Shown piece after piece: positions 8,181 through 64,000 of a stretch of DNA of 64,000 nt. This DNA is from Candidatus Curtissbacteria bacterium. GTDB lineage: Bacteria > Patescibacteriota > Microgenomatia > Curtissbacterales > GWA2-41-24. The first letter of the stretch is position 1. Each line of letters begins with the position of its first letter. The notes beneath the pieces were generated by a model that was given only the letters and a program-made list of their open reading frames with translations, did not search any database and was not told the origin of the DNA. The stretch covers positions 264,927 to 328,926 of the forward strand of contig JAUSJC010000010.1 of assembly GCA_030647775.1 (NCBI GenBank), written 5' to 3'. The position numbers were made by a program, and so were the translations under genes.

Positions 8181-8184
8181 TCTA

Positions 8185-11412: not shown

Positions 11413-11441
11413 TTGTTGCTTATTTTGCTGTGTAATATAAT
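11413..11441 (+). promoter_or_regulatory. Candidate sigma70-type promoter upstream of the rml operon
   Basis: -35 TTGTTG at 11413-11418, a 17-nt spacer, then -10 TATAAT at 11436-11441, about 15 nt before the rmlA start. Confidence 0.4.
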
Positions 11442-11455
11442 TACCAAATCAATAT

Positions 11456-12208: not shown

Positions 12209-12209
12209 T

Positions 12210-12344: not shown

Positions 12345-12351
12345 ACAATTC

Positions 12352-14812: not shown

Positions 14813-14866
14813 TTGACCATTTTTAGCTAAAATGTCCTATACCCGATGCCCATCGGGCTAGTTAAT

Positions 14867-31639: not shown

Positions 31640-31758
31640 TGATGCCAGAACTGTTCCTGTATTAGGGGCAAGCGCGGTACTTCCACCGCAATGTAGAGCA
31701 TCCGCAACCCAGAAGCGAAAGCACGCCGGGTGCCAGGAAGTTTCAATATAATTGACTC
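31640..31758. ncRNA. Candidate structured RNA or cis-regulatory leader of unknown class
   Basis: About 120 nt of relatively GC-rich non-coding sequence with several potential helices (gcgcggtac...accgc, gccggg...), bracketed by convergent terminator hairpins. I could not match it to SRP, 6S, tmRNA, RNase P or c-di-GMP riboswitch consensus by eye. Confidence 0.2.
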
Positions 31759-31786
31759 GTCCTCTCCGCTTCGAGAGGACTTTTTT
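31759..31786 (+). terminator. Intrinsic terminator on the plus strand
   Basis: gtcctctc-cgcttcg-gagaggac, an 8-bp GC-rich stem, followed by TTTTTTG. Confidence 0.55.
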
Positions 31787-31828
31787 GTTCTTCCACAAAA
31801 AACGCCCGGTACACGAAAGGAAAAATCA

Positions 31829-47637: not shown

Positions 47638-47660
47638 CTTAAATTTGCTAGAATTAACTC

Positions 47661-48734
47661 GTGTCCAAGCTTGACAAAATTCTGAAATTACCAGGCTTGG
47701 TTGATGTCCATGTTCACCTTCGGGAACCCGGAGCAACCCAAAAAGAAGATTTCCGAACCGGAACCATGGCAGCTGTCGCTGGTGGTTATACCCAGATTTT
47801 AGATATGCCCAATAACACACCGCCAACAACAAGTCCTAATGCTCTAAATCAAAAAATTGATTTGGCAAAGGGTAAAATTTGGTGCGATCTAGGTTTTAAT
47901 TTCGGAGCAACTGCCTCTTCCACAAAATATTTTAGAAAGATTGAGAATAAAGTTTTCGGCCTTAAAGTTTATATGAATCAAACAACCGGACCGCTTCTTG
48001 TCGAGAGCGAAGAAGATCGGGATTTGATATTCAAATCATGGCCTTCTTCTTTACCGATTATGGTTCACGCAGAAGGGGAGACCGTGGAAATAGCTATCAA
48101 GCTTGCTAAAAAATACCATAAATCACTTCACGTTTGTCATGTAACGGCAGATCAAATTAATGCAATCGAAAACGCAAAAAAGGAAAACGTTTTGATAAGC
48201 TGTGAAGTTTGTCCCCATCACCTTTTTTTGAATCAATTTGACATTCAAAAACTGGGGCCGTTTGGTTTAATGAAACCGCCGCTGCTTTCCAAAAAAGATC
48301 AAGAAAAACTCTGGAGTAAAATGGATAAAATCGATATGATATCAACCGACCACGCACCTCATACAAAAGAAGAAAAGATGAATCAGCCTGGCCCTAAGTT
48401 TGGTGTTCCCGGTCTTGAAACAACGCTCCCGCTTCTTTTAAAAGCCGTTGAAGAAGGCAGAATTTCGCTTGAAAGATTAATCGAAATGACCGCAACAAAT
48501 CCCAGGAAAATCTTTAAAATTCCAACTCAAAAAAATACTTACGTTCTTATCAATTCAAAAATTACTTATAAAATTTCTAACAAAAATTTATTTACAAAAT
48601 GCCGCTGGACTCCCTTTGTCGGTATGGAAGGCAGGGGAGAAATACAGAAAGTTATTATCCGCGGCAAAACGGTTTATGAGAATGGTAAATTTATTGGCAG
48701 ACCCATAGGCAAAGTAATCTATCCTCGTATTTAA
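47661..48734 (+). CDS. pyrC: Dihydroorotase-like amidohydrolase
   Basis: LPGLVDVHVHLREPG, DMPNNTPP, and STDHAPH. Confidence 0.8.
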   Translation: MSKLDKILKLPGLVDVHVHLREPGATQKEDFRTGTMAAVAGGYTQILDMPNNTPPTTSPNALNQKIDLAKGKIWCDLGFNFGATASSTKYFRKIENKVFGLKVYMNQTTGPLLVESEEDRDLIFKSWPSSLPIMVHAEGETVEIAIKLAKKYHKSLHVCHVTADQINAIENAKKENVLISCEVCPHHLFLNQFDIQKLGPFGLMKPPLLSKKDQEKLWSKMDKIDMISTDHAPHTKEEKMNQPGPKFGVPGLETTLPLLLKAVEEGRISLERLIEMTATNPRKIFKIPTQKNTYVLINSKITYKISNKNLFTKCRWTPFVGMEGRGEIQKVIIRGKTVYENGKFIGRPIGKVIYPRI

Positions 48735-48892
48735 TGTAGCGATTTTAAAACATCAAAAAACCAGGCCAGTAAACTTTCATTTTTCACCAGCACACTTTTT
48801 TCAGCAAGCACTCTTTCTGAGTCAGGAATCGAAAGATCTATGTTTGATTCACCGATCACCGGCCTGCCGATCGAGTTTAAATAGGCAGTTGT

Positions 48893-48910: not shown

Positions 48911-50662
48911 GTGAAGTTTTGGCCCAATCCCCATTTTTTATCGATATTTGCTCTCCTTTTTTTCTCAGTCTTCGCGCTTAAAAGCTTGAGTACTTCCGGA
49001 TTCTATACTAGCCATGATGGAGAAACCCATACGGCCAGAATTGCCCAATACTTTATAGCACTTTCAGACTGGCAAATTCCCCCGCGCCATGCCGCCTCAT
49101 TCTATAGTGGACTTGGCAGTCCGATTTTTGTCTACATTTATCCTCTTCCGTACCTACTGGGATCGGCAGTCCACGTGCTGGGTTTTTCTTTCGCAAATTC
49201 ATTCAAGATAATAATGGCACTGGGTTTCGTCATGTCGCAAGTTTTTGCCTATCTTTGGTTTTTCGAGTTTTTTAAAAGCCAAAAAGCAGCTTTTCTGGGG
49301 GCTCTATTTTATGTATGGGTACCTTACAGGCTTTCCCTGGTTTATGTTCGGGGGTCTCTTTCCGAACTTCTTGCTTATACTTTTCTGCCTCTGGCATTTT
49401 ATGCTCTCACAAAATTATCAAAACAAAAAAATCCTCTTTGGATTGCCATAAGCGCCGTTTCTATCTCCTTGATTCTCCTGTCACAAAATCTCGTTGCGGC
49501 AATTACACTGCCTGTAATTTTTGCCTACGTCATTATCCTTAGTATTTTTGAAAAATCAATCAAATATTTAGCTTTGGCTTCAATCGCTTTTTTGTGGGGA
49601 TTGGCGCTGTCGCTAGTTACCTACTTGCCGTCACTTTTTGAAATAAAATTTACGAGATTTAGCGAAACCATTCCGCTTGCCTATGCCAACCACTTTATTA
49701 CCCTAAAACAGCTCATCAGTTCGCCTTGGGGTTATGGTTTCGACCTGGATGGAAGCGCCGCCGATGCGATGTCTTTTCAGATAGGCCTTGCGCACATCCT
49801 GATTTTAGGTACCGCCATTTTTCTGTGTACATACTTTTTTGTCAAAAAATTCCCTTTCGTTAAGAAAATTGGCCGGGTTTTTGTGCGCGAGGTAGAAGCG
49901 AAATCCCAAGCTGTTGCCATTTTTTTCATTGCCGCCTTTCTAATCAGCGTCGTTTTGATGCTCGACATTAAAGCGACTAGATCAATCTGGAACGATTTTA
50001 AACCACTCCACACAATTGATATCCCCTGGAGATTTTTAGGTATCTCCTCACTCGCCACTGCTTTCTTGGCGGCATTCGTTTCTAAAACCGTTAAAAGCGG
50101 ATTGATATTTATTTTGGCAATTTTGGCGGTAGTTATTGCAAACAGAAATAACCTAAGAATCAATGAACCGGTTTTTTATAGTGACAGCCATTTTTTAAAC
50201 TATACCGGGAGTGCCACCCAATACGGTGAATTTACGCCGGTCTGGAGACAGACGACGAGGGTGCCCATCGGCATTGACCCCGGCAGCAAAATTCGTTCAA
50301 TCCCGCAAACAGTCGATATAATAGGCCTTGTCGCTTCGTCCCAAAAAATCACTTTCGATGCCGATGTTCTTTCCCAAACAGCCGAAGTTAGAATCAATAA
50401 GTTCTATTTTCCCGATACCGATGTTAAGGTTGACGGCAAAAAATTAAAGCCGTTTTCGGATTTTTCAATTACCGGTTCGACTAGCTTGGTTATTGATAAG
50501 GACGAAGACGGATCAGGCATGCTTCTTATAAAACTGGCAAAAGGCCTCCACCATATCGATGTAGCCTACAAAGAAACTACCCTTAGGTTATTTGCCGACA
50601 TTCTCTCTCTTGTGGCTTTCGTCGCGGCTCTTTTCGTCATTGTCAAATATGCTAAAAAATAA
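48911..50662 (+). CDS. YfhO-superfamily-like polytopic membrane protein (paralog of 27754 and 34900)
   Basis: GFYTSHDGETHTARIAQY...SPIFVYIYPLPYLL. A C-terminal beta domain and a final TM are present. Confidence 0.55.
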   Translation: MKFWPNPHFLSIFALLFFSVFALKSLSTSGFYTSHDGETHTARIAQYFIALSDWQIPPRHAASFYSGLGSPIFVYIYPLPYLLGSAVHVLGFSFANSFKIIMALGFVMSQVFAYLWFFEFFKSQKAAFLGALFYVWVPYRLSLVYVRGSLSELLAYTFLPLAFYALTKLSKQKNPLWIAISAVSISLILLSQNLVAAITLPVIFAYVIILSIFEKSIKYLALASIAFLWGLALSLVTYLPSLFEIKFTRFSETIPLAYANHFITLKQLISSPWGYGFDLDGSAADAMSFQIGLAHILILGTAIFLCTYFFVKKFPFVKKIGRVFVREVEAKSQAVAIFFIAAFLISVVLMLDIKATRSIWNDFKPLHTIDIPWRFLGISSLATAFLAAFVSKTVKSGLIFILAILAVVIANRNNLRINEPVFYSDSHFLNYTGSATQYGEFTPVWRQTTRVPIGIDPGSKIRSIPQTVDIIGLVASSQKITFDADVLSQTAEVRINKFYFPDTDVKVDGKKLKPFSDFSITGSTSLVIDKDEDGSGMLLIKLAKGLHHIDVAYKETTLRLFADILSLVAFVAALFVIVKYAKK

Positions 50663-52274
50663 TCTATTACTCGTCATAATTATTGCTCTATCAATAGCCC
50701 TTCGTTTTTACCAGCTTGGCCAAAATCCGCCGGCATTGGATTGGGATGAAACCGCTCATGGCTATAACGCTTACAGTCTATTAAAAACAGGCCGCGACGA
50801 ATATGGTTATAAATTGCCGCTGTCAATAAGGTCATTTGACGACTATAAACCGCCGCTTTATACATACCTCGTAGTTCCGTCGGTTGCCGTCTTCGGCATT
50901 AATGATTTCGCTGTCCGCTTTCCGTCTGCTTTTCTTGGGGTTTTGGCAGTCTTTTTCACTTACCTGATGGTTTTTGAACTTTTCAAAAACAAAAATATTG
51001 CTCTTCTTGCCGCATTATTCTTAGCTATTTCTCCATGGCACGTTCAATTTTCAAGAGTCGCCTTTGAGACAAATAGTGCAACTTTTTGGTCGGTGCTTGG
51101 CACCTGGGCGTATTTAAAAGGCATGGATTCCAAAGGTAAAAAAATCACATTGTGGCTGTCACTAGCGGCAATAGCATTCGGTGCCAATCTCTACATGTAC
51201 CATAATGCCCGGGTTTTTATACCAATTTACTCACTCGCTCTTGTAATCCTTTTTCGGAAATTTATTCAAAAGAATATAAAATATATTATTCCTCCTCTCT
51301 TAATTTTCGCGATATTTATTGTATTTTTGATACCCATCATTTTCTCAATTTCCGGCCAGCTTAGATTCAAAGGTACCACAATTTTTTCCGACGTTTCTCC
51401 GCAGTTTCATGCCTCAGGCCTAATCGTCCAGGATGAAAAAGCCGGACTTGGAACCGTTGGCAAAATCTTGCATAACCGCCGCTTTGTCTACGTGCCTATT
51501 TTAATTGATAATTACCTTTCACATTTTCGCCCGACATTCCTTTTTATAACTGCCGATATGGAAAGGCATCACGCCCCCCAAATCGGTCTTTTATATTTTT
51601 GGGACCTGCCGTTTATTGTTGCCGGTATTTACTTTTTAATAAAAAACAAATTCGTTGCGTCTTCCAAAATTATCGTTTTATGGTGGTTTTTGATTTCTCC
51701 GGTAGCAGCCTCCGTAACTTGGGGAGTACCGCATTCTCTAAGGAGCGAGATTTTTCTGCCCACTTTCCAGATCTTTGCGGCAATTGGTGTTTATACCCTT
51801 TACACTTACTCAAAAAGGAAAAAACTCTTCGCAATCTTGGCGGCTATTACTCTTTTGGCCAATTTCACCTTTTATCTTCATCAATATTATGTTCATATGC
51901 CGTACGATTTTTCTAAATATTGGCTTTATGGCAGAAAAGAAGCAATAGAGTACACCGAAGCAAATAAAAATAAATACCAGCAAGTCATTGTTTCCACCAA
52001 GTTGGAACAGCCGCATGAGTTCTGGCTTTATTATTCAAAATACGACCCGGTTAAATATCTTTCAGAAGGTGGAACCGTTTCTGGCGGATTTTTAGAAGAT
52101 AGAAATAAATTCGATAAATATTTGTTCAAACCTATCGATTTTGCCAAGCAAAATGAAGAAGCAAAAACCCTATTCGTTGGCACGCCCAAAGAATTCCCTC
52201 CCGGTGTAAATATCCTAAAGCAAATAAATTATCTAAATGGCGAGCCGGCTATTTATATTATAGGCAATGACTAA
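50649..52274 (+). CDS. ArnT/PMT-family (GT39/GT83-like) GT-C glycosyltransferase, array paralog 1
   Basis: LRFYQLGQNPPALDWDETAHGYNAYS carries the D-E loop motif. Also YKPPLY and SPWHVQFSR. Confidence 0.75.
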   Translation: MLKNNLLLVIIIALSIALRFYQLGQNPPALDWDETAHGYNAYSLLKTGRDEYGYKLPLSIRSFDDYKPPLYTYLVVPSVAVFGINDFAVRFPSAFLGVLAVFFTYLMVFELFKNKNIALLAALFLAISPWHVQFSRVAFETNSATFWSVLGTWAYLKGMDSKGKKITLWLSLAAIAFGANLYMYHNARVFIPIYSLALVILFRKFIQKNIKYIIPPLLIFAIFIVFLIPIIFSISGQLRFKGTTIFSDVSPQFHASGLIVQDEKAGLGTVGKILHNRRFVYVPILIDNYLSHFRPTFLFITADMERHHAPQIGLLYFWDLPFIVAGIYFLIKNKFVASSKIIVLWWFLISPVAASVTWGVPHSLRSEIFLPTFQIFAAIGVYTLYTYSKRKKLFAILAAITLLANFTFYLHQYYVHMPYDFSKYWLYGRKEAIEYTEANKNKYQQVIVSTKLEQPHEFWLYYSKYDPVKYLSEGGTVSGGFLEDRNKFDKYLFKPIDFAKQNEEAKTLFVGTPKEFPPGVNILKQINYLNGEPAIYIIGND

Positions 52275-53865
52275 AAAATATCTGCTGGTAATAATCATTC
52301 TCGCCGCATTTTTGCGATTTTATAAACTTGCCTCCTTTCCTGTTTCTCTTTACTGGGACGAAGCGGCAATCGGCTATAATGCTTTTTCCATTGCCAAAAC
52401 CGGCCACGATGAGTATGGAAGAAAATTCCCTCTCCTTTTTCAGTCATTCAACGATTACAAACTACCGGGCTATATTTATACCGACTCCATTTTTATAAAA
52501 GTTTTCGATTTGTCGGAGTTTTGGGTTAGATTCCCGTCGGCGCTTTTTGGAACGTTTGCCGTTTTGTTAATTTACTTGTTGAATCGTAAAATTTTTAATG
52601 AAAATATAGCTCTTGCCTCCGCATTTTTGCTGGCAATTTCCCCTTGGCATTTACAATTTTCCCGGGCCGCTTTTGAAGCAAATGCGGCTTTGACCTTGGT
52701 CGTTTTGGGAATCGTCCTAATTTTTTACGGGTTCAGAAATAAAATAGCGGCTATGCTTTCACTGCCAATTTTGTTTTTATCATTTTATTTCTATCATTCT
52801 CCAAGAATCTTTGTTCCTGCTATCCTGCTTACGATAGCTTTTTTATACCGCAAAGAAATTGCCAAAAACGCAAAAGCATATATTGTCGGTTTGGTTGTTG
52901 GTGCAATATTGATTATCCCGATTTTAGTCCAAATTGTTTCGCCTCAAGGCATGAAGCGGGTAGGAGAGGTAAGCCTTTTTTCAGACCGGTCAATAATCGA
53001 ACCGTATGTTCTTATCAGAGAATCGGTAAACATCCCTTCATCTGCAATTTTCTTAAACCGCAGAATTCCGCTTGCGTTTGAAATACTTCATAGTTACTTT
53101 TCGCATTTTTCACCAGGGTTCTTATTTTTCGGTGACGATCCAAACCCAAGGCAAAAATCGGCCCTCCACGGCAATCTTTATTTGGTTGAAATCCCGCTTC
53201 TTTTGGCGGGCTTATGGATGCTGTTAAAACAAAAAGACAACAAATCTAAACTCTTCATCGTCGCTTGGCTTTTAGTTGCTCCTATCCCGGCGGGTTTAGC
53301 TAGAGAATTCCCGCATTCCTTGCGCGCGCTTTTAATGCTTCCTGCACTTGTCACCCTATCCGCCATAGGTTTTACCTCTGCCTTCAGGATCAAGTTCGCG
53401 AAATTAATAATCCCGATAGTCTTTTCGCTTTCAATAATCAATTATTTATTCACTTATTACGTGGTATCCCCGCAAACGAGTAGCGCCTCTTGGGCATATG
53501 GTTATGAGCAAGCCTTTGTCAAAGTCGCCGCACTTGAGGGGGATTACGATCGGGTTATTTTCACCGGCAACTACTGGAAACCATATATTTTCTATCTTTT
53601 TTATAATAAAGTTGATCCCGGCATCTTTGCCAAAAGCCGCAGCGAAACGGAATTGGGTAAGTACAGATTCGGCGTGGCCGCTTGGGATGGCGGCAAAAAT
53701 TTTGACAACACGAGGGTTGAAGAACTCAAATCTGGCAAAACCCTTGTCGTACTTTCGCCCCAGGAGTTTTCAACTCTTATGTCTGGAGAAAAACTTAAAT
53801 CACTTCAAACGATTTACGATTTCGCCGGTACCAACGAAATATTTAAGATAGGGCAGTGGCAATGA
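52267..53865 (+). CDS. ArnT/PMT-family GT-C glycosyltransferase, array paralog 2
   Basis: LRFYKLASFPVSLYWDEAAIGYNAFS and SPWHLQFSR. Confidence 0.75.
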   Translation: MTKKYLLVIIILAAFLRFYKLASFPVSLYWDEAAIGYNAFSIAKTGHDEYGRKFPLLFQSFNDYKLPGYIYTDSIFIKVFDLSEFWVRFPSALFGTFAVLLIYLLNRKIFNENIALASAFLLAISPWHLQFSRAAFEANAALTLVVLGIVLIFYGFRNKIAAMLSLPILFLSFYFYHSPRIFVPAILLTIAFLYRKEIAKNAKAYIVGLVVGAILIIPILVQIVSPQGMKRVGEVSLFSDRSIIEPYVLIRESVNIPSSAIFLNRRIPLAFEILHSYFSHFSPGFLFFGDDPNPRQKSALHGNLYLVEIPLLLAGLWMLLKQKDNKSKLFIVAWLLVAPIPAGLAREFPHSLRALLMLPALVTLSAIGFTSAFRIKFAKLIIPIVFSLSIINYLFTYYVVSPQTSSASWAYGYEQAFVKVAALEGDYDRVIFTGNYWKPYIFYLFYNKVDPGIFAKSRSETELGKYRFGVAAWDGGKNFDNTRVEELKSGKTLVVLSPQEFSTLMSGEKLKSLQTIYDFAGTNEIFKIGQWQ

Positions 53866-55646
53866 CTAAAAACAAGCTTTTTATTCGCAGAAAAGCTCTG
53901 CTTATTCGCAGAAAAGCTCTGCTTATTCGCAGAAAAGCTCTGCTTATTCGCAGAAAAGCTCTGCTTATTCGCAGAAAAGCTCTGCTTATTCGCAGAAAAG
54001 CTCTGCTTATTCGCAGAAAAGCTTTGCTTAATTCGAGCACCACGAGAATCAAGGTTCTGAGTAAAACTCAGGTTCTTCTTTTTCTCGCAATTGCCATTTT
54101 ATCCTTTGGTCTAAGATTTTATAATCTTTCGGAAAATCCTCCGGGCCTTTATTGGGATGAGGCGGCCTTTGGTTACAACGCTTATTCAATTTTAAAAACA
54201 GGGCACGATGAACATGGGCGCTTTTTGCCATTATTTTTTGAAAGCTTTGGGGACTGGAAACTACCGGGCTATTTCTATCTCCTTGTTCCGTCAATAAAAC
54301 TTTTTGGCCTGTCAGAATTATCGGTACGCTTCCCTTCTGCCTTACTTGGTTCACTGGCGCCGCTTATTTTCTTTCTGCTTATCAAAAAAATTACCAAAAA
54401 TACAAACCTGGCCTTGACGAGTATGTTTTTTCTGGCAATTTCCCCCTGGCATATCCAGTTCTCAAGGTCTGGTTTTGAGTCTACTCCAAGTCTTTTCTTC
54501 GTTGTTTCTGGCGTCTATCTGATGCTTTTAGGGATCGAGACAAAGAAAATATCAATACTTTCTTTGTCTTTTTTTCTTTTTGTTCTTTCAATCTACACAT
54601 ACCATGCTTCCCGAATTTTTGTTCCGCTTCTGGTTATTTCAATAATTCTTACAAACTTGAAGTGGATTAAGCAAAATATTAAACTTTGGGCTTTTCCAGC
54701 CCTCATCGGGCTAATTTTGTTGATTCCGATGATTATATTCACCCTTTCCCCAAATGGTAGAAGCAGGGCAATTTCCGAGTCGGCTTTTAAAGAAGATGAT
54801 CGCCAAACTGCCCGCCTAAACTTTGACCAGAAGTCCAAAAAACCCTTGCGCTTCTTGTCCGGGTATCTTTTCAATCCTCCTGCTTATTATACGCAAGTTG
54901 TGCTTATCGGGTACTTGAATCATTTTTCCCCGACCTTCCTTTTTATAAACGGTGACCAGATAGGCCGCCATTCCCAAGTCGATATGGGGCAAATTTATCT
55001 GTTTGATGCTATCTTTTTATTTCTGTCCTTCTCCGCTTATAAAAAACTTAAAGGAGACGGCAAAAAAATAATGCTTTTTTGGCTGCTGCTTGCACCAATT
55101 CCGGCTAGCTTTGTCACCCCGACGCCCCATGCTCAAAGAGCCCTTCAGATGTCCATACCCCTGGCTTTTCTCTCAAGCCTCGGGGCTTATTATTTTTTCT
55201 CGGCCAAAAAACTAATTGTTATTAAAATTCTTCTTGCCGGAGTTGTGATATTTTCCTTTGCCGTTTTTATCCACCTCTTATTTGTTCACTATCCTAAAAA
55301 GTTTGCTGCCGATTGGCAGGACGGCTATAGGCAAATGGTTCAAGAGGTCAAAAAATACCAAGATGACTATCCAAAAGTATACATAACCAATATAAACAAT
55401 GTCCCCTATATTTATTTACTTCTTTACTTGCCATACGATCCAGAAAAATTTGTCAAAGAAAATAGCACCAAGGGCGCTTTTGGCAAGTATGTTTTTATTG
55501 ACCCAAATTACAATATATATAATAAAGGAAGAGTTCTTTATGTTGCACCCTCATGGCAAAAAGAAGACGGCGAAAGGCTTTCTACCGTCAATGATTCTTC
55601 CGGCAGGCATATTTATTCACTTTGGGATATAGGGGGTAAAAATTAA
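53856..55646 (+). CDS. ArnT/PMT-family GT-C glycosyltransferase, array paralog 3, with a repeat-encoded basic N-terminal extension
   Basis: GTG start, then (IRRKALL)x7, then LRFYNLSENPPGLYWDEAAFGYNAYS and SPWHIQFSR. No canonical start codon lies between the repeat and the first TM helix. Confidence 0.7.
   Translation: MAMTKNKLFIRRKALLIRRKALLIRRKALLIRRKALLIRRKALLIRRKALLIRRKALLNSSTTRIKVLSKTQVLLFLAIAILSFGLRFYNLSENPPGLYWDEAAFGYNAYSILKTGHDEHGRFLPLFFESFGDWKLPGYFYLLVPSIKLFGLSELSVRFPSALLGSLAPLIFFLLIKKITKNTNLALTSMFFLAISPWHIQFSRSGFESTPSLFFVVSGVYLMLLGIETKKISILSLSFFLFVLSIYTYHASRIFVPLLVISIILTNLKWIKQNIKLWAFPALIGLILLIPMIIFTLSPNGRSRAISESAFKEDDRQTARLNFDQKSKKPLRFLSGYLFNPPAYYTQVVLIGYLNHFSPTFLFINGDQIGRHSQVDMGQIYLFDAIFLFLSFSAYKKLKGDGKKIMLFWLLLAPIPASFVTPTPHAQRALQMSIPLAFLSSLGAYYFFSAKKLIVIKILLAGVVIFSFAVFIHLLFVHYPKKFAADWQDGYRQMVQEVKKYQDDYPKVYITNINNVPYIYLLLYLPYDPEKFVKENSTKGAFGKYVFIDPNYNIYNKGRVLYVAPSWQKEDGERLSTVNDSSGRHIYSLWDIGGKN
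53881..54037. repeat. 21-bp tandem repeat ttattcgcagaaaagctctgc, about 7.5 copies
   Basis: Seven full units (53881-54027; the last has a c-to-t change) plus a partial eighth. The unit is the reverse complement of the 40874 repeat unit with 2 mismatches in 21. Confidence 0.9.
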
Positions 55647-55710
55647 AAAATTAATTTTCGTCCTTTTAGCACTAACCTTTTTCTTCAGGCTTTGGCAAAC
55701 AACCGGCTGC

Positions 55711-56208
55711 GTGCATTTTAACGGTTTTTATTTTAATCCACTCTCTGTCAAGATTAATGTCGAATCCCAAACCGGTCTTGATCCTTCAGGCCAAAAGGTA
55801 ATATCAAAAATCTTTCATAATAAAATAGTTACCTTTCCGTTTGAGGCCTCAAAGTCTTTTGCAAAAACAATCGATCCGGGATTCCTCTTAGAAGTACTCG
55901 GCCCGGCGGGGTTTTTACTGCTGATTCTATCTCCGGTCGAAATTTTTAGGAGAAAAAGAAAACTGGGGTTTATCCACTTAACAGTAGTCCTGGCAGTTCT
56001 TATCTTTTCCCTAAGACCAATATCACCCAAAATCGCCTTTTGGGCCGTATCAATATCTTTTTATACCCTTTCTCTTTGGGGCATCGGTGCGGTAGTCAAG
56101 AACAAATATATTAGTTTTTTCTTTATCGTATTAATTTTTTACTCGTTGTGGTATTTTGCTATAAATTGGCAAATGCCGGCACTTTGCAATGAAATCTTTT
56201 TTAACTAA
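55711..56208 (+). CDS. Small membrane protein, paralog of 57688..58134
   Basis: HNKIVTFPFEASKSFAKTIDPGFLLEVLG aligns with HNKIGIYASEFSRCYANVFDPNFIYHTVG of the other copy. There are three C-terminal TM helices. The frame is open upstream to 55633 and encodes a signal-like KKLIFVLLALTFFF segment, but no canonical start codon is present there. Confidence 0.5.
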   Translation: MHFNGFYFNPLSVKINVESQTGLDPSGQKVISKIFHNKIVTFPFEASKSFAKTIDPGFLLEVLGPAGFLLLILSPVEIFRRKRKLGFIHLTVVLAVLIFSLRPISPKIAFWAVSISFYTLSLWGIGAVVKNKYISFFFIVLIFYSLWYFAINWQMPALCNEIFFN

Positions 56209-57691
56209 AAACGTTTTCCTCATTATTATTATGGTAATTGCGGCGGCTTTAAGGTTCTACCAGTTTGGTCAGGATCATCCCAGCCTTTTCGTTGATGAGG
56301 TGTCCAATGGCTATAACGCTTACAGCATTTTAAAAACCGGCCGCGATGAATATGGAAATTTCCTCCCGCTGGTAATTAGGTCATTCGGGGACTATAATCC
56401 GGCTCTCTCCGCATACCTATTAATCCCCTCGATTGCCGTTTTTGGTTTAAACGAAAGTGGCGTCAGGTTTCCGTCGGCACTTCTGGGCACATTGACTGTT
56501 CTTCTGACCTATTTTTTAGTTTTAAAACTCTTAAGAAATAATAAAATCGCCCTGTTTTCAAGTTTTTTTCTGGCTATTTCCCCATGGCACTTACAATTTT
56601 CCCGTTATGACCACGAAGCTAATTTTATGGTCTTTTTTGGCGTTTTAGGTATCGTACTTTTCCTGCATTCGTCAAAAAATCTTCGTTTGCTTATTGCTTC
56701 AACGCTGTCATTCGGTCTTGCCCTCAATTCTTACCAGGGTGCAAAGATTTGGATTCCTGTTCTTTTGACGGTGATCTTTCTTTTCTACCATAAAGAAGTC
56801 CTTGCCTTTAGACATAAGCTCGTTTATCCGTTTATCATCCTGTTAATATTTTGCTTTCCAATCATTTTAAACTTCAAAAGTAGTTTAATCCGCGGCCAAT
56901 CTGTGGGAATTTTGGGTACTCAAAAACCCCTAGAAACATTTATTACCGGGTATCTTTCCCACTACAATCCCAATTTTCTTTTCACTTCAGGAGACAACAT
57001 TGGCCGCCATTCGGTTCCTGGTATGGGCGAGCTTTATATTTTTGAAGCACCGTTGATTGTCTTAGGTCTCCTTTTTCTTGTTCGTCAAAAAACACGGGCC
57101 CCCAAATTCCTTCTGGCATGGCTTCTGGTTGCCGCTATCCCGCCGGCTACAGCCGTTCCTACACCCCATGCACTGCGGGGACTGACATTCATTCCGATTT
57201 GGTCGATAGTTGCCGCCTGCGGCGCAAGTGTCATCTTCTCCGCCAAAATTAAAGGCGGCGCCAAAAAGGGGTTAGTTTTTATTTTGGCAGCTGTTGCCTT
57301 TTACAATATCGTTACTTACTTCCATCTCTACTACAAACATTACCCCAAAGAAAAAGCCCCTGATTGGTCGGACGGCTATAAAGAGATGGTACAGGCCGTG
57401 GATAAGATTAAAGATGGTTATAGCTCTATCGCTATCTCTTCGTACTACGGCCATCCGTATATTTTTACGCTCTTTTACGGAAAGTACGATCCCGTTAAGT
57501 ATCAACCCCAGTCTGCTGATCAAACCAAATTTGACAAATTCGAATTTTTTGGCCCTTCATGGAAAAAGACCAAACCAGGCAAGGCTTTGGTCGTTACGCC
57601 CGAGTGGCAGGCGCATCCCGATAAAGTTTTAAAACAAATATACTCGATAAACGGCGATCTAAGATTTAATATCTCCGAAACAGAACAATGA
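56189..57691 (+). CDS. ArnT/PMT-family GT-C glycosyltransferase, array paralog 4
   Basis: LRFYQFGQDHPSLFVDEVSNGYNAYS and SPWHLQFSR. Confidence 0.75.
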   Translation: MKSFLTKNVFLIIIMVIAAALRFYQFGQDHPSLFVDEVSNGYNAYSILKTGRDEYGNFLPLVIRSFGDYNPALSAYLLIPSIAVFGLNESGVRFPSALLGTLTVLLTYFLVLKLLRNNKIALFSSFFLAISPWHLQFSRYDHEANFMVFFGVLGIVLFLHSSKNLRLLIASTLSFGLALNSYQGAKIWIPVLLTVIFLFYHKEVLAFRHKLVYPFIILLIFCFPIILNFKSSLIRGQSVGILGTQKPLETFITGYLSHYNPNFLFTSGDNIGRHSVPGMGELYIFEAPLIVLGLLFLVRQKTRAPKFLLAWLLVAAIPPATAVPTPHALRGLTFIPIWSIVAACGASVIFSAKIKGGAKKGLVFILAAVAFYNIVTYFHLYYKHYPKEKAPDWSDGYKEMVQAVDKIKDGYSSIAISSYYGHPYIFTLFYGKYDPVKYQPQSADQTKFDKFEFFGPSWKKTKPGKALVVTPEWQAHPDKVLKQIYSINGDLRFNISETEQ

Positions 57692-58134
57692 AAATCTTTT
57701 TACTAATAATATTTTCGGCAGTGATTATTTCAGTTAGGGCAAATGCCAGCCTGCCGATTTGCAATTTGGATACCGCAAAACAAGCTATTCCTCCCCGGAT
57801 TTTTGCCGAACAAACGATAGACGGTAGAGATCAAAATATCACGCTTACCAGATTTTTACACAATAAAATCGGAATTTACGCTTCGGAGTTTAGCAGGTGC
57901 TACGCAAATGTCTTCGACCCCAATTTTATATATCACACCGTTGGGATAGTCGGAATTATCACCTGGCTTTATTTTGTATACCAAATCATCCAAAGAAAAT
58001 ATTATTTTCTGCTTATTGTTCTACTTGCTTTACCTCTTCTGCCGTTTCTAAAATTTTCGCTTCTGCCAATTTTATTTGCCTACAAGCTTTTTGCTATCAT
58101 AGGACTGGGGTTTCTGCTGTCTAAACTAAAATGA
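57688..58134 (+). CDS. Small secreted/membrane protein, paralog of 55711..56208
   Basis: Signal peptide MKIFLLIIFSAVIISVRANA, the conserved HNKIGIYASEF...DPNF block, and two or three C-terminal TM helices. Confidence 0.5.
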   Translation: MKIFLLIIFSAVIISVRANASLPICNLDTAKQAIPPRIFAEQTIDGRDQNITLTRFLHNKIGIYASEFSRCYANVFDPNFIYHTVGIVGIITWLYFVYQIIQRKYYFLLIVLLALPLLPFLKFSLLPILFAYKLFAIIGLGFLLSKLK

Positions 58135-59753
58135 GGAAATATTTACTTCTTGGCATTATCCTTCTGGCCGCAACTTTGAGATTATATAAATTGGCTTCTG
58201 TTCCGCCGTCGCTTTATTGGGACGAAGCATCTTTGGGCTACAATGCATATTCAATTTTAAAGACCGCGCATGATGAGCATGGAAAATTTTTACCACTCAC
58301 CAATTTTGCCGCTTTTGGTGATTACAAACCGCCCGGCTACATCTACGCCGCGGTTCCTTCTATTGCCGTCTTTGGCCTTACCGAATTTGCTATTCGTTTC
58401 CCATCGGCGTTTTTTGGAACGCTGACCGTTTTATTAACTTATCTTCTTGCCAAAAAACTTTTTGAAAAAGAAAAAATTGCGCTTCTTTCGGCCTTTTTTC
58501 TGGCTATTTCCCCATGGCACTTACAATTTTCCCGGGGTGCCTTTGAGGCGAATCTTGGTTTATTTTTAAGTGTTCTTGGAATTTACTTATTTGTAAAATT
58601 TGCAAAAGATAATCAATATTGGATTCTTCTGTCCCTCCTATCGTTTTTAGCCGCCATGTATACCTTTACGGGGCAAAGGTTATTTGTTCCTTTTATTCTG
58701 CTTATTCTTTTCATCCAGTTTAAAAATGCAGTTGTCAAAAATCTCAAAGTTGTTATCCCGGGTATAATTATCTTTGCTTTTCTCTTTTGGCCGCTTTATA
58801 AATTTGCCACCGGTACCATTGAAGGCAGGCTTCGTTTTAACGAGGTTTCAATTTTCAACGATCTGGCGCCGGCAGACGAGTCAACACGCTTAAGGACGAA
58901 AGATAACTTCGCCTGGTGGGCAAATCTAATCCATAACAGGCGCTTAGAGTACGCCCATGAATATCTAGTCCACTATTTCGATGCTTTCAACCCGGCCTTT
59001 CTTTTTACAAAAGGGGATGTTAATCCGAGGCTTTCCGTTCAGGAAGTAGGCGAACTATATCTTATCGATTTGCCGCTAATTTTATCCGGCATTTACTTTC
59101 TTTTTGCCAAAAAACAAAATTTCAGGTTCTTAATTATCGCCTGGTTACTGGTTTCCCCGCTCGGTCCGGCAACAGCCCGCGAAACTCCCCATGCCTTGCG
59201 GATGATTCATATCCTGCCCACATTCCAATTGCTTGCCGCTTTTGGATTTTTTGGCCTTTGGGAAATGATTAAGTACAAAAAAGTCTTCGCCGTTTCTGTT
59301 TTCTTACTGCTTGCGGCCAGTTTTATCTATTATCTCAATATGTACTATATTCACTGGCCAATAAATTATTCGGGGGAGTGGCAATACGGCTATAAACAGG
59401 CTGTCCAGACAGCTAACTTGCAAAAGTCCGCCAATGTTGTTGTCACCAAAAGCCTTGGGAGGCCCTATATCTATTTCCTTCTCTATTCAAAATATGACCC
59501 TGGAGAGTTTTGGGCCACGGGGCAAGTCGTCAGGGATAAATTTTTCTTTCTAGACGTTAACGGTTTTGGTAAATATCACTTTGTTGACGATGTAAATCAA
59601 GCAAAAGTCTCCGGCGAAACCGTCTACGTTTCACCTCCCGGGAGTGTTCCAAAAGGAGCCCAAGTAATTGATACGATCTTAAACCTCGATGGCAGCCCGA
59701 CCTTGGTCATTTCAAAGAAGAACGTGCCGAATCCTCCCGATAATAAAAACTAA
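58131..59753 (+). CDS. ArnT/PMT-family GT-C glycosyltransferase, array paralog 5
   Basis: LRLYKLASVPPSLYWDEASLGYNAYS, YKPPGY, and SPWHLQFSR. Confidence 0.75.
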   Translation: MRKYLLLGIILLAATLRLYKLASVPPSLYWDEASLGYNAYSILKTAHDEHGKFLPLTNFAAFGDYKPPGYIYAAVPSIAVFGLTEFAIRFPSAFFGTLTVLLTYLLAKKLFEKEKIALLSAFFLAISPWHLQFSRGAFEANLGLFLSVLGIYLFVKFAKDNQYWILLSLLSFLAAMYTFTGQRLFVPFILLILFIQFKNAVVKNLKVVIPGIIIFAFLFWPLYKFATGTIEGRLRFNEVSIFNDLAPADESTRLRTKDNFAWWANLIHNRRLEYAHEYLVHYFDAFNPAFLFTKGDVNPRLSVQEVGELYLIDLPLILSGIYFLFAKKQNFRFLIIAWLLVSPLGPATARETPHALRMIHILPTFQLLAAFGFFGLWEMIKYKKVFAVSVFLLLAASFIYYLNMYYIHWPINYSGEWQYGYKQAVQTANLQKSANVVVTKSLGRPYIYFLLYSKYDPGEFWATGQVVRDKFFFLDVNGFGKYHFVDDVNQAKVSGETVYVSPPGSVPKGAQVIDTILNLDGSPTLVISKKNVPNPPDNKN

Positions 59754-61243
59754 TGAAATATCTTCGTAAACTAAATTTTTTAGCTCTGGTAGTTCCAGTC
59801 TATTTTGCAACAAGGCTTGTTAATTTTTTAATTATCCCGATTTTTACCGATGAGGCAATCTATAGCTATTGGGCCCAAGTCGCCCTTCACGATCCCGCCA
59901 ATCGGTTTATATCTTTAGAAGACGGGAAACAGCCTCTTTTTATCTGGCTGGCGGCTATCTTTCAGAGATTAATTTCTGATCCTTTGGTGGCAACTCGTCT
60001 CGTTTCGGTTTTTGCCGGTCTTGGGTCTTTACTGGGGGTTTACTTTCTAGCCCGTGAATTGTTTGGCACAAAAGTTGCCAAAATTGCCGGCGTTCTTTAT
60101 ATAATTTTACCCTTCACCCTGCTTTATGACCGCATGGCTCTTTTTGATTCGCTCCTAACCATGTTTTGCGTCTGGTCAGTCTTTCTGACTTATAAGATGG
60201 CTAAAAGCCCTCGCCTCGACTACGCGCTGCTCAATGGAATTATTTTGGGTCTCGGCTTAATAACCAAATCCTCAATAAGCTTTTTCCTGTATCTTCTTCC
60301 GGCATCACTCATAGTTTTTGATTTCAAAAAAGAGCTGTTAATAAAACGTTTATCAAAGTGGCTAGGGTTGTCCGTAATAACTTTTGCCATATCCGAAACA
60401 ATTTATAATGCACTTCGAGTTTCCCCTCTCTTTTACATGATCGACCGCAAAAACCATGAGTTTATTAGAACTTTTTCCGAGGTTATCAAAAATCCATTCC
60501 TGCATTTTTCCGGAAACATCAATAGCATGGCTACATGGTTATTCCAATACAATGGGCCGCTTATTTTGGTAGTTCCGGCCGTGATGATTTATGGATTGGC
60601 AAAGAAGGACAAAAGAATAATTCTTCTTTCGGTATACATCTTGGTGCCTTTTTTGGCTAAAGCTCTTTTCAATCAAATTTTATATCCGAGGTTTTCTTTA
60701 TTCTATTTCCCATTTATTATTATTTTAATTAGTTTTGGTATAAGTTTAACTTTGGCGTCGTTATCAAAATATAAAGGGTTAGTCTGGACTGTGCTTTCGG
60801 CTTTAATAATTTTTCCGCTGGTCTCGTCATTTTATTTGCTGACAAATCCCCCCAAAGCTGGTATTGCTGGTTCCGATAAATTCCAATATATAAACGGTTG
60901 GTCTTCCGGATATGGAATCCGCCAAATCGTCAATATTTTAAAAACGGGAAACTCCAAAGAGAAAGTTTATGTGGGGACAGAAGGCACTTTTGGTCTTTTA
61001 CCATTCGCCTTGCAAATCTATTTTTATGGCAACCCGAATATTCAAGTGGTAGGTTATTGGCCTGTCGGAAGCCTTCCAAAACAGGTTTTAGATTCGGCCA
61101 AAACCCAAAAAACTTATTTCATCTTTTACCAAAACCAAAATCTCCCGCAAATGGACGATCTTGCTCACTTGAAATTAATTGGCAAATATCAAAAAGGTAA
61201 CGGTGCAAACTTTATGAGTTTTTACGAAGTTAATGGAAACTAA
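59753..61243 (+). CDS. PMT/ArnT-family GT-C glycosyltransferase, divergent subfamily
   Basis: IIPIFTDEAIYSYWAQV carries a D-E loop, and the protein has about 12 TM helices. Its sequence family differs from that of the flanking paralogs. Confidence 0.65.
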   Translation: MKYLRKLNFLALVVPVYFATRLVNFLIIPIFTDEAIYSYWAQVALHDPANRFISLEDGKQPLFIWLAAIFQRLISDPLVATRLVSVFAGLGSLLGVYFLARELFGTKVAKIAGVLYIILPFTLLYDRMALFDSLLTMFCVWSVFLTYKMAKSPRLDYALLNGIILGLGLITKSSISFFLYLLPASLIVFDFKKELLIKRLSKWLGLSVITFAISETIYNALRVSPLFYMIDRKNHEFIRTFSEVIKNPFLHFSGNINSMATWLFQYNGPLILVVPAVMIYGLAKKDKRIILLSVYILVPFLAKALFNQILYPRFSLFYFPFIIILISFGISLTLASLSKYKGLVWTVLSALIIFPLVSSFYLLTNPPKAGIAGSDKFQYINGWSSGYGIRQIVNILKTGNSKEKVYVGTEGTFGLLPFALQIYFYGNPNIQVVGYWPVGSLPKQVLDSAKTQKTYFIFYQNQNLPQMDDLAHLKLIGKYQKGNGANFMSFYEVNGN

Positions 61244-62913
61244 TGAAAGGCAAACTTATCCTTCTGGTTATCATTCTAATTGCAGCACTGCTCAGATTAA
61301 TTAACCTCGGATCAATACCTGTCGGTTTTAACGATGATGAAGCCGCTTTTGGCTACAATGCTTATTCAATTTTAAAAACGGGTCAAGATGAGTGGGGAAG
61401 GAAAATCCCTTTTCCGGTCTTTGAAAGTTTTGGTGACTGGAAGCTAGTCGGTTACTTGTATATGACTGTAGTTTCAGTGAAATTCTTTGGTCTGAACGAA
61501 TTTGCGACAAGATTCCCTTCAGTGTTATTTGGGATTCTTTCTGTTTTTGCTACCTATCTTTTATCAAAAAAACTTTTCAACAGGGAAATTGCTTACGGTG
61601 CGGCCTTTTTGCTTGCAATCTCACCCTGGCACATTGTCGCTTCTAGGAACGCCTTTGAATCAGACGTATTAATATTCTTAATTACAATTTCGGCATATTT
61701 CTTTCTATGCGGTTTACAAAAGAGCAAATATTTGCTTCTTTCCTATTTAGGATTTATAGCTAGTTTTTATATCTATAGATCCAGCTGGATTTTCGTACCC
61801 CTGTTCATTCTAACTCAAACCTATTTTTTCAGAAGCCGGATTAAAAAAGCGGTTTTAAAACACTCCAAATATTTTATCGCCATAACTTTTTTGATATTAC
61901 CTTTAATTCCTGTTGTATTAACATTTAAAGGTCAATCTAGGTTTATTCAAGAGAGTTTTATTTCCGGAACTTCTAAAATTGGTATCATAAATAACATTAA
62001 TGAAAAACGGGGATTGTGCCAAACCAAAATACCGGACATTGTCTGTAGACTTATCCATAATAAATATAGCTATTTTGCAAACACTTACATAAACAACTAT
62101 TTAGGAAATTTGTCGGGTGTGACATTCTTTAATAAGGCAAACCCGACCGGTTTTCAATCTTTTGCAACAAGAAGCGTTTTTTATATTTTTGAGCTGCCTT
62201 TACTAATTGCCGGTCTTATCTTTCTTTTTAAAAATAAAAACCAAGGCGCAAAAATACTAATTCCGTGGTTATTATTAGTCCCGGTCGGAGCATCAATGGT
62301 TGGCATTGGAAATTTTGGTCGGATCAACATTATTATGCCGGCTCCTCAGATAATAGAAGCCTTCGGATTTTTTTCCCTTTTCGGTTTCCTAAAAAAAATA
62401 GAATTAAGGAAAATGACCTTAATATTTGTAATATTTATTGTTTCGATTTCATTTTTAGAATTTATTTCAGAACTGTTTCTGGTTGAACCCTATACAACCG
62501 CAAGAGCCGGAAGATATGGCTACAAAGGGCTTTTTAACTATCTGGAATCCCAGGAAAATAGCTACAGTCAAATTCTTATTTCTAAAAAAATTGATAGTAG
62601 TCATCAATACATTCAATACGTCTTCTTTCAAAAGATAAATCCTCAGTATTTTATTGCAAGCGCCAATCGCCCCAAAGCAGATAACGGTTGGGTAGATTTT
62701 GAAAGCATAGGCAAGTATGAATTTGTTCACTCAATGCCCGATGTTCCAAAAATTCCCAAAAATACGCTGGGAGTGGTGGGTGAAAATGAAGTTGAATACC
62801 CAATTCCTCCAAAATTTATAATACGAGATTTAAGAGGGGACATTTTATTTAAAATCTTCGATATTGACGAAGTAAAAGAAAAGTTGCAGGCGAATATAAA
62901 TAAAAATTCATAA
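61243..62913 (+). CDS. ArnT/PMT-family GT-C glycosyltransferase, array paralog 6
   Basis: LRLINLGSIPVGFNDDEAAFGYNAYS and SPWHIVASR. Confidence 0.75.
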   Translation: MKGKLILLVIILIAALLRLINLGSIPVGFNDDEAAFGYNAYSILKTGQDEWGRKIPFPVFESFGDWKLVGYLYMTVVSVKFFGLNEFATRFPSVLFGILSVFATYLLSKKLFNREIAYGAAFLLAISPWHIVASRNAFESDVLIFLITISAYFFLCGLQKSKYLLLSYLGFIASFYIYRSSWIFVPLFILTQTYFFRSRIKKAVLKHSKYFIAITFLILPLIPVVLTFKGQSRFIQESFISGTSKIGIINNINEKRGLCQTKIPDIVCRLIHNKYSYFANTYINNYLGNLSGVTFFNKANPTGFQSFATRSVFYIFELPLLIAGLIFLFKNKNQGAKILIPWLLLVPVGASMVGIGNFGRINIIMPAPQIIEAFGFFSLFGFLKKIELRKMTLIFVIFIVSISFLEFISELFLVEPYTTARAGRYGYKGLFNYLESQENSYSQILISKKIDSSHQYIQYVFFQKINPQYFIASANRPKADNGWVDFESIGKYEFVHSMPDVPKIPKNTLGVVGENEVEYPIPPKFIIRDLRGDILFKIFDIDEVKEKLQANINKNS

Positions 62914-64000
62914 TGTTGAAAAACAAGTTATTTTTAATCATAATTTGTTTGGCACTCGTCTTGAGATTCTATAAGTTAGGGCAAATTCCGCTTTCTCTGG
63001 ATTGGGATGAGGCCAGTAATGCTTATAATGCCTATTCCATCCTAAAAACCGCCCGTGACGAATACGGTACTTTTCTTCCCCTTACCAACAGGTCGTTTGA
63101 TGATTACAAACCGCCTCTTTACATGTATCTTAATGTCCCGACAGTCGCTATTTTTGGTTTAACTCCATTTGCCGCAAGGTTCCCATCGGCATTTTTTGGG
63201 TTTCTGACGGTACTGGCTATTTATTTTCTGGTCAAGAAATTATTTAACCAGAAGATTATGGCTCTTACCGCTATGTCTCTGCTTACAATTTCCCCATGGC
63301 ATATCCAGTTTTCCAGAGTAGGTTTTGAGGCCAATGTCGGCCTTTTTACGGCAGTGGCGGCAGTCACGGCGTTCCTTTACGGACTTAAGAACTGGAAATT
63401 CTTGATTCTTTCAAGCATTTTTCTGGGGCTTTCCATGTACAGTTACCATACAGAAAGAATGGTTGCACCCCTACTTTTTTTGTCGGCTTTCATAATTTGG
63501 AGAAAAGAAGTGTTTTCCCTTTCCAAAAAATACTTAAGCCTGTTTGTAGTAATTTCCGTCTTGATTATCTTACCGCTGGTAATATTCACCCCCCAGAAGG
63601 TTATCCTTCAAAGGTTCGAGACAACCACCGCCAATAGCACGCTGGACGATATCAATAAATCGATTAAATTTATTCGACAGGATCAGGATGCCCATTTTCC
63701 GCTTGGAAACATTATTGACAATAGAAGGGTTATTATTGCAAAAACTTATCTTACAAATTATTTGTCCCATTTTAGTTTCAACTTCCTCTTTATAAAAGGC
63801 GATGATAACTTCAGGCATCACGTTGAAGGTTTTGGTATGCTTTATCTCTTTGAACTGCCCCTTTTAATTCTGGGTGTTATAAGATTAGTTAGAGAGAAAA
63901 ATAAAGCAAAATATTTTGTTTTTGCTTGGCTGCTTATCTCGCCGATTGCGGCCGCCCCGGCTAGCCCTAGCCCTCATGCCGTAAGGTCACTGCCGGAAGT
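62913..64000 (+). CDS. ArnT/PMT-family GT-C glycosyltransferase, array paralog 7 (3' end beyond window)
   Basis: ATG at 62913, giving MLKNKLFLIIICLALVLRFYKLGQIPLSLDWDEASNAYNAYS, YKPPLY, and SPWHIQFSR. The frame is open to the window end. It is absent from the ORF track only because no stop lies inside the window. Confidence 0.7.
   Translation, partial: MLKNKLFLIIICLALVLRFYKLGQIPLSLDWDEASNAYNAYSILKTARDEYGTFLPLTNRSFDDYKPPLYMYLNVPTVAIFGLTPFAARFPSAFFGFLTVLAIYFLVKKLFNQKIMALTAMSLLTISPWHIQFSRVGFEANVGLFTAVAAVTAFLYGLKNWKFLILSSIFLGLSMYSYHTERMVAPLLFLSAFIIWRKEVFSLSKKYLSLFVVISVLIILPLVIFTPQKVILQRFETTTANSTLDDINKSIKFIRQDQDAHFPLGNIIDNRRVIIAKTYLTNYLSHFSFNFLFIKGDDNFRHHVEGFGMLYLFELPLLILGVIRLVREKNKAKYFVFAWLLISPIAAAPASPSPHAVRSLPE

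Follow-up and report, generated by a model that had tools for sequence, protein, structure and literature searches.

A 64-kb stretch of DNA from Candidatus Curtissbacteria (Candidate Phyla Radiation; groundwater), hereafter the window, to whose positions all coordinates refer, carries an array of eight intact large open reading frames (ORFs) for putative GT-C glycosyltransferases, with two small ORFs for membrane proteins interleaved among them, all on the plus strand (Table 1). Genes are named here after their starts: the large genes are 50649, 52267, 53856 (or 53862), 56189, 58131, 59753, 61243, and 62913, the last of which runs to the window end, and the small ones are 55711 and 57688. Stops and starts overlap as ATGA at 52267, 53862, 57688, and 58131 and form TAATG junctions at 59753, 61243, and 62913. 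Longer overlaps occur at 56189 (20 bp) and at 50649 (14 bp; this ORF opens at TTG 50592), and the sole intergenic gap in the string is 65 bp (55646-55711). The 48911-50662 gene upstream, which encodes a PTPS_related, GT-C-like protein, joins the same overlapping string. Together, the PTPS_related protein, the eight GT-C enzymes, and the two small membrane proteins form one operon of ~15.6 kb, from 48911 to roughly 64480. The coordinates and the overlapping or abutting junctions confirm the head-to-tail array given in a preliminary description of this DNA, which also had the array continuing beyond the window. Instead, the array closes with the eighth large gene: on a contig carrying an identical 61243 protein (L001), the 62913 gene is full length (522 amino acids [aa]; L001 4409-5977) and stops ~480 bp beyond the window end; after it comes a PMT_2 gene on the opposite strand, in convergent orientation (L001 5979-7538/7607).

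All eight large proteins matched the Pfam model PMT_2 (PF13231) with 39.7 to 63.4 bits (gathering cutoff, 26.1), and seven of them also matched PMT (PF02366) with 26.9 to 55.8 bits (cutoff, 22.7); no PMT match was obtained for the 59753 protein. The best scores against NCBIfam models of individual activities were 27.2 bits for ArnT (NF009784, an equivalog model; curated cutoff, 567), 20.4 bits for the bacterial protein O-mannosyltransferase Pmt (NF058602; cutoff, 800), and 56.1 bits for Agl23 (TIGR03663; cutoff, 126.25), the last in the N-terminal part only. The MIR domain of eukaryotic-type PMT (GT39) was absent from the Pfam matches at E values up to 0.01. A protein 100% identical to the 58131 protein, also from Candidatus Curtissbacteria and encoded on a contig of 526,960 bp, is named “glycosyltransferase family 39 protein” by NCBI. 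A PDB search with a single sequence gave no match, and one with a 14-sequence profile gave only ArnT, weakly, which made a comparison of folds necessary. For the 58131 protein, the AlphaFold model (predicted local distance difference test, 91.5; predicted template modeling score, 0.90) shows a clear GT-C fold that resembles ALG12, STT3, ArnT, and Pmt4 to about the same degree, and the sequence identity to ALG3, ALG9, and ALG12 is only 11 to 12%. As judged from secondary structure, the model comprises seven N-terminal helices, then a long loop spanning residues 229-312, four further helices, and, at the C terminus, an alpha/beta domain (418-540); this is the layout described for ALG9 and ALG12 (PMC13503287). 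This predicted layout would put every conserved motif on the outer side of the membrane.

Each large protein consists of an N-terminal module, which holds an invariant Asp-Glu pair and an SPWH..SR..E block, and a variable C-terminal part made up of the long loop after the seventh transmembrane helix (TM7), four helices, and the outside alpha/beta domain. A conserved module of seven transmembrane helices followed by a variable module is characteristic of class GT-C_A, as is an acidic catalytic residue in the first helix of the first outside loop. Here, the acidic pair D31-E32 lies at the start of helix 30-45 (58131 numbering), and a catalytic role is predicted for it. Across 36 sequences, no variation is seen at D31, E32, S127-P128-W129-H130, S134, R135, and E139. 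The preliminary description had assigned LRFY-x-L, WDE, and SPWH-x-QFSR blocks to all eight proteins; this holds for seven of them, with variants in the 61243 protein (LRLINL, DDE, and SPWHIVASR) and the 56189 protein (VDE), but the 59753 protein keeps only the D-E pair and lacks the SPWH block. The PMT_2 and PMT matches and the fold of the 58131 model support the proposed identity of the proteins as GT-C glycosyltransferases of the PMT/PMT_2 type, class GT-C_A, and profile searches and fold alike speak against a non-glycosyltransferase membrane family.

The division into a seven-gene subfamily and one divergent gene was likewise borne out. The seven proteins are 30 to 45% identical to one another over nearly their full length (E values of 1e-47 to 1e-117), a likeness that by these values far exceeds chance, and the 59753 protein matches them over only ~100 to 150 residues. 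For comparison, 12 distinct loci of related genomes (labeled L with a number) were collected, mostly by exact-protein look-ups; a scan of the genome collection gave four. For each paralog, the relatives carry a 1:1 orthologue with 41 to 84% identity, well above the level between paralogs, and the seven orthologue clades have bootstrap values of 96 to 100% in a phylogenetic tree constructed by neighbor joining only. Against the closest relative, L002, the ratio of nonsynonymous to synonymous substitution rates (dN/dS) was 0.06 to 0.13 for the large genes where computable and 0.06 to 0.24 with the small genes included, values that are approximate because synonymous sites are near saturation. For the 61243 gene, these sites are fully saturated, and the proportion of nonsynonymous differences is still far below that of synonymous ones. 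Given the low dN/dS, none of the copies in the window looks like a pseudogene. The tree and the substitution rates indicate ancient paralogy rather than recent duplication, with all copies maintained and functional.

The number of genes in the array varies from 3 to 8 across lineages. The 58131, 59753, and 62913 types occur in all loci and form a constant core, and the 50649 type occurs in most; the 52267, 53856, 56189, and 61243 types have been gained or lost between lineages, with the 61243 type duplicated in some. DNA identity between copies is 60 to 82% and restricted to the conserved motifs; the lack of long shared tracts gives no sign of gene conversion or of a diversity-generating mechanism. 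At the protein level, identity between clades peaks in the SPWH block (0.72) and the first outside loop (0.58); the lowest value, 0.17 as against 0.50 within orthologues, belongs to the initial part of the loop that follows TM7. The remainder of the C-terminal half has also diverged between paralog clades.

Some irregularities were seen among the relatives' genes. Three are split into two ORFs (L006 14767-16328; L007 16652-18330; L012 14917-15661, minus strand); they belong to the 62913 type, the 61243 type, and the convergent PMT_2 gene and are possibly pseudogenes or assembly errors. Unrelated insertions of 10 to 45 residues occur in orthologues of two paralogs at the same site, a short loop after residue ~110 (58131 numbering); the carriers are P0034 and P0120 (alignment A1 columns 122-164) and L012 6361-8004, which includes assembly Ns.

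The two small proteins had been described as paralogous, and we found that they are 26% identical over 65 residues (E value, 2e-6) and that one profile retrieves both types. Neither has a Pfam or NCBIfam match. The 57688-type family comprises 69 database clusters, nearly all of ~147 aa and 40 to 99% identical, and the 55711-type family comprises 31 clusters of 113 to 222 aa at 30 to 100% identity. Invariant in the small-protein family are D45, Q49, and H58-N59-K60, and two cysteines are conserved. These features and the dN/dS values of 0.08 (55711) and 0.24 (57688) indicate that both ORFs are real, conserved genes under purifying selection. We also considered that they might be pseudogene relics, an explanation rejected on account of the purifying selection, the constant length across the 69 and 31 clusters, and the invariant motifs.

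A hidden Markov model built from the seven large paralogs matched the 57688 protein at the segment HNrr..Y..hFsPtFlF. Conversely, the profile of the small family aligned with residues 236-381 of the 58131 protein (hhalign E value, 3e-5; probability, 73%) when fused sequences were left out; with these included, the match fell only on the N-terminal extension of three fused proteins, which is how the fusions were found. When 1.84 billion proteins were searched with a profile, most matches were proteins of 80 to 220 aa, and three were full-length members of the GT-C subfamily, matched exactly at the loop (248-300 or 248-358; E values of 3e-6 to 1e-4). In these three, the loop reads TIDGxxQNxxxTRFxHNK, like the small proteins. 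In a MAFFT alignment for one fusion, P0091, the free small proteins fall on the internal loop of the large part and not on the N-terminal module. These comparisons show the small proteins to be stand-alone copies of a segment of the large enzymes made up of the post-TM7 loop, which bears the H-N-K/R motif, and the three helices that follow. This derivation from an internal piece of the enzymes, like the end of the array just past the window, goes beyond the preliminary description. Modeled alone, the small protein has a predicted topology with both ends inside.

Across the 12 loci, each small gene is found only after the paralog that has lost the HNRR motif from its loop. The 56189-type orthologues (8/8) lack ~30 loop residues including HNRR, and the 53856-type orthologues (6/6) have a degenerate motif (NPP, NQP, QES, PTP, or SKP), whereas every other clade keeps an H/L/D-N-R/K loop motif. 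The 57688 type is present in 8/8 loci with the 56189 type and in 0/4 without it; the 55711 type is present in 6/6 loci with the 53856 type and in 0/6 without it. The downstream neighbor varies: in L013, the 55711 type is followed by the 58131 type; the 56189 type has no preceding small gene in L006, L011, and L014; and the 58131 type stands without any small gene in L003, L004, and L007. The perfect co-occurrence upstream and the variable neighbor downstream therefore support a large gene plus the following small gene as the unit of inheritance. The duplicated two-gene unit that had been proposed thus stands as an inherited unit, but its origin by duplication of one unit is weakly supported, because the 53856 and 56189 clades are sisters with a bootstrap value of just 49%.

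The account that we consider best at present, with a probability of roughly 0.55, is that the array encodes a set of acceptor-specific GT-C enzymes for a surface glycan, with loop modules acting in trans. The mechanism is drawn from other GT-C_A enzymes (PMC13503287, PMC8035078). Each enzyme would take a sugar from a polyprenyl-phosphate-sugar at the outer face of the cytoplasmic membrane, and its variable part would select the acceptor; in ALG3, ALG9, and ALG12, acceptor contacts come mainly from the variable module (PMC13503287). The eight enzymes would then share their chemistry, and probably the class of donor, and differ in acceptor or linkage. Together they would build or decorate a surface glycoconjugate from precursors that genes elsewhere in the window (sugar-nucleotide, GT2/GT4, and Wzx-like) would supply, and gain or loss of enzymes around the 58131-59753-62913 core would change the glycan between lineages. 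A highly elaborated surface glycoconjugate, one of the two possibilities raised in the preliminary description, is plausible and fits the gene context. As for the small proteins, we suggest tentatively that each provides, in trans, the loop element that the adjacent upstream paralog has lost (56189 type) or retains only in degenerate form (53856 type). In line with this, a distant protein, P0242 (627 aa), has a small module at its N terminus followed by a divergent PMT_2-like enzyme without an internal loop of its own, in effect a permuted arrangement. The enzyme would then be a split GT-C, in which the loop and helices come from a separate small protein that is itself a partial copy of the enzyme and would restore or retune donor or acceptor binding; we put this forward as a possible arrangement rather than the expected one.

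Several points weigh against this account. In one clade, natural fusions occur: three diverged proteins of 678 aa (P0060, P0091, and P0104) begin with a 57688-type module that continues in frame into the 58131-type (downstream) enzyme, whose loop is intact. This hints at a partner different from the upstream gene, or at a complex of three. Shared descent may account for part of the co-occurrence, given the phylogenetic relatedness of the 12 loci. Donor, acceptor, and product are predicted only, and the proximity of HNRR to the active site is drawn only from other GT-C enzymes. The structure model covers one of the eight enzymes (58131), and the NCBIfam scores for ArnT, Agl23, and Pmt are all below threshold, so that the family models assign no specific activity. 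Fusions of module and enzyme may mean that the enzymes lie close together in the membrane and that the operon products work as one membrane complex.

The fusions lend themselves to another reading, in which the small proteins serve the enzyme downstream, as a membrane module added at the N terminus of the 58131-type (and 56189-type) GT-C that acts, for example, in complex formation or acceptor capture, and the loop loss upstream is coincidental. Besides the three 678-aa fusions, the ATGA overlap between the 57688 stop and the 58131 start points this way, and the predicted both-ends-inside topology of the small protein is compatible with such a fusion. However, the loci in which the 58131 or 56189 type lacks a preceding small gene, and the one in which the other small type stands before the 58131 type, do not fit a service to the downstream gene, and the presence of the small genes follows the upstream gene perfectly; we therefore consider this reading unlikely. 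The same fusions, which link the module to a neighboring enzyme, the tight coupling of the genes in one operon, and the dimeric state of known GT-C enzymes of these types (entries 6p25, 9i5k, and 7bvf) would suit hetero-oligomers like Pmt1-Pmt2 or EmbA-EmbB, in which only some subunits are catalytic and the loop-deficient copies are scaffolds. Yet all seven proteins, the loop-deficient ones included, retain both the D-E pair and the SPWH..SR..E block along with further conserved residues, and the loop-deficient copies are under equally strong selection, which makes catalytically silent subunits improbable.

The other alternatives concern the array as a whole. The enzymes might be Pmt-type protein O-glycosyltransferases, each acting on its own set of proteins at the surface or secreted (pilins, S-layer, or adhesin-like proteins) and not on a polysaccharide. 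That no paralog has a MIR domain, that the NCBIfam O-mannosyltransferase model reaches at most some 20 bits against its cutoff of 800, that the fold matches ALG12, STT3, and ArnT as well as or better than Pmt, and that the neighbors (Wzx-like, many GT2/GT4, YfhO-like) resemble a polymer pathway all count against protein acceptors, to which we give a small share of the probability. The second possibility of the preliminary description, a diversity-generating family, here taken to include phase variation of the cell surface among members of one population, would agree with the differing gene content of the lineages (3 to 8), with a few split copies in relatives, and with a near-perfect 21-bp repeat at the 5' end of the 53856 gene that is absent from three orthologues checked (L002, L009, and L010). 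With the start at ATG 53862, this repeat codes for (LIRRKAL)n; with the start at TTG 54024, it is untranslated. A change in its copy number cannot shift the reading frame because the unit is 21 bp, and 1:1 orthology, low dN/dS, and the lack of long identical DNA tracts between copies also argue against such a family, which we regard as very improbable.

The array lies in a longer glycan locus: from ~6.6 kb to the window end, nearly all genes are for glycan biosynthesis. These include about ten GT2/GT4 genes and at least 16 GT-C-like membrane proteins (PMT_2, YfhO, and PTPS_related), with another just beyond the window. The GT2 proteins 18122, 21802, 32633, and 45849 are most like the polyprenyl-phosphate-sugar synthases PgfS, ArnC, AglJ, and PpgS, all far below the curated cutoffs. 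In relatives, the locus goes on with GT2, GT4, a Mannosyl_trans2-type GT-C, and a small SMR-like protein.

Table 1. Genes and other features of the array and of the surrounding glycan locus, in window positions
Feature	Position	Strand	Details
Sugar-nucleotide enzymes	6652-18125		
GT2 fused to GtrA domain	18122		GtrA_DPMS_TM 61.2 bits
Further PMT_2 genes	19272, 23896		
YfhO-like genes	25298, 42621		
PTPS_related genes	27754, 34855, 48911		
Wzx-like gene	36692		Polysacc_synt_3/MurJ-like; predicted flippase by sequence
PTPS_related membrane protein, polytopic	48911..50662	+	583 aa; PF10131 35.8 bits (cutoff, 26.4)
GT-C paralog 1	50649..52274	+	541 aa; intact HNRR loop; PMT 55.8 bits, PMT_2 51.9 bits; dN/dS 0.06; orthologues 61-83% identical
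GT-C paralog 2	52267..53865	+	532 aa; loop motif LNRR; dN/dS 0.13; lineage-variable
GT-C paralog 3	53856..55646	+	likely start ATG 53862, in ATGA overlap with previous stop; degenerate loop motif; dN/dS 0.06
21-bp tandem repeat	53881..54035	+	7.3 copies, 98% identical; 5' end of paralog 3
Small membrane protein A	55711..56208	+	165 aa; HNK motif; loop after TM7 and following helices; dN/dS 0.08; accompanies paralog 3
GT-C paralog 4	56189..57691	+	500 aa; ~30 loop residues including HNRR deleted; dN/dS 0.10
Small membrane protein B	57688..58134	+	148 aa; signal-anchor helix, loop-like domain, three helices; dN/dS 0.24; accompanies paralog 4
GT-C paralog 5	58131..59753	+	540 aa; core, in all 12 loci; modeled protein; dN/dS 0.09
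Divergent PMT_2 gene	59753..61243	+	496 aa; core, always directly after paralog 5; PMT_2 63.4 bits; dN/dS 0.13
GT-C paralog 6	61243..62913	+	556 aa; loop motif HNKY and two Cys in loop; 56% identical to L002 orthologue
GT-C paralog 7	62913..64000, cut by window end	+	core; last head-to-tail gene

Within the operon, the 48911 protein is 27 to 30% identical to its paralogs at 27754 and 34855 and weakly matches the 50649 protein; its orthologues precede the array in L002, L006, and L010 to L014. Among the loci compared, the 52267 type is confined to the window, L002, L009, and L013. The 61243 type is the fastest-evolving and most copy-variable member, being absent, single, or duplicated in relatives. 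An 18-bp repeat (2.1 copies) is found at 48780-48816, inside the 177-bp gap upstream of the 48911 gene that is the likely operon start. A scan for promoters and terminators was uninformative: promoter-like sites were about as frequent as expected from shuffling, and terminator-like matches were inflated by the tandem repeat.

Other genes in or near the glycan locus were also recorded. Among the glycan genes, the intervals 20828-21748, 46624-47832 (minus strand), and 47661-48734 hold two pyrimidine genes, for an aspartate carbamoyltransferase and a dihydroorotase-like amidohydrolase, and a cytidylyltransferase-like plus DUF359 gene. Apart from the DUF359 gene, no large gene lies on the minus strand between 18 and 64 kb, and the amidohydrolase and DUF359 genes hold the same position in the relatives L003 and L010. 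ORFs 22688-23899, 31730-32617, and 33379-34764 (403, 295, and 461 aa) have no Pfam match, and the two that were tested have no NCBIfam match either; they could be polymerase- or ligase-like membrane proteins of the glycan locus. A 401-aa ORF at 4951-6156 joins TsaE and Sua5/YciO/YrdC domains; in most cases, these are encoded as two individual proteins of t6A tRNA modification.

Bacteria of the Candidate Phyla Radiation, whose genomes are smaller than 1 Mb, are presumed to live in attachment to other cells, and, to our knowledge, their surface chemistry is almost unknown. That more than 50 kb of one 527-kb contig of this small genome is devoted to glycan synthesis argues that an elaborate surface glycan is central to this lifestyle, and the lineage-specific gain and loss of enzymes offers a concrete handle on surface variation. 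If the split enzyme proves true, it would be a modular route to new surface-glycan specificity in very small genomes. The loop-module proteins are also a naturally occurring means of testing where in a GT-C enzyme specificity is set, and they bear on a question left open in a review of Gram-positive transmembrane glycosylation, namely, whether a compact GT-C enzyme depends on a second protein to recognize its substrate and bind its acceptor (PMC8035078).

Among known systems, the closest functional models are the Gram-positive multi-component systems, ALG3/9/12, and Emb/Aft. The Gram-positive multi-component transmembrane glycosylation systems (CsbB/GtcA/YfhO, GtlA/GtlB, GacI-J-K-L, and CsdAB/CD/EF; PMC8035078) combine a GT2 that makes polyprenyl-phosphate-sugar, a GtrA/Wzx-type flippase, and a PMT_2/YfhO-type GT-C that transfers the sugar outside. 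Genes of all these types are in the window, the GT2 genes being candidate synthases and the putative flippases being the GtrA_DPMS_TM protein at 18122 and the Polysacc_synt_3/MurJ-like protein at 36692. Here, however, eight PMT_2-type enzymes stand in one operon without one-to-one pairing to GT2, and the partners duplicate part of the enzyme itself, a situation that is absent from that review. ALG3, ALG9, and ALG12 (GT58/GT22; PMC13503287) are mannosyltransferases of the endoplasmic reticulum lumen that belong to other Pfam and CAZy families, are not clustered, and have known substrates. A GT-C catalytic subunit with a small membrane partner is also found in Gpi14-Pbn1, the glycosylphosphatidylinositol mannosyltransferase I (PMC12653191). 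In such pairs, the known partners are unrelated to the enzyme, whereas here the partner is a paralogous fragment that matches a defect at the same place in its neighbor.

Protein O-mannosyltransferases (GT39: Pmt1/2/4 and bacterial Pmt) have in common with the array the PMT model in seven of eight proteins, the D-E pair of the first loop, and the NCBI family 39 name, but here the MIR domain is absent, scores against the NCBIfam Pmt model are below its cutoff, and the C-terminal half is laid out differently. ArnT (GT83), the lipid A aminoarabinose transferase, differs in that its NCBIfam model is not reached here and no lipid A pathway is evident in the window. Candidate Phyla Radiation bacteria are generally considered to have no outer membrane. 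In mycobacteria, the EmbC-EmbA-EmbB and Aft arabinosyltransferases form a tandem set of GT-C paralogs within one operon; with a polyprenyl-phosphate-sugar as donor, they synthesize a wall polysaccharide stepwise, and some form heterodimers. The tandem arrangement in one operon is the likeness to the present array, and the arabinosyltransferase structures 7bvf, 8if8, 6w98, and 9dlh came up in our fold comparison. Full-text literature searches gave no paper in which this array or the small proteins are described, and one Microgenomates genome paper gives only a count, 29 glycosyltransferase genes. As a large GT-C array, the locus is thus known in kind; what is new is the pairing of enzyme-derived loop modules with loop-deficient paralogs.

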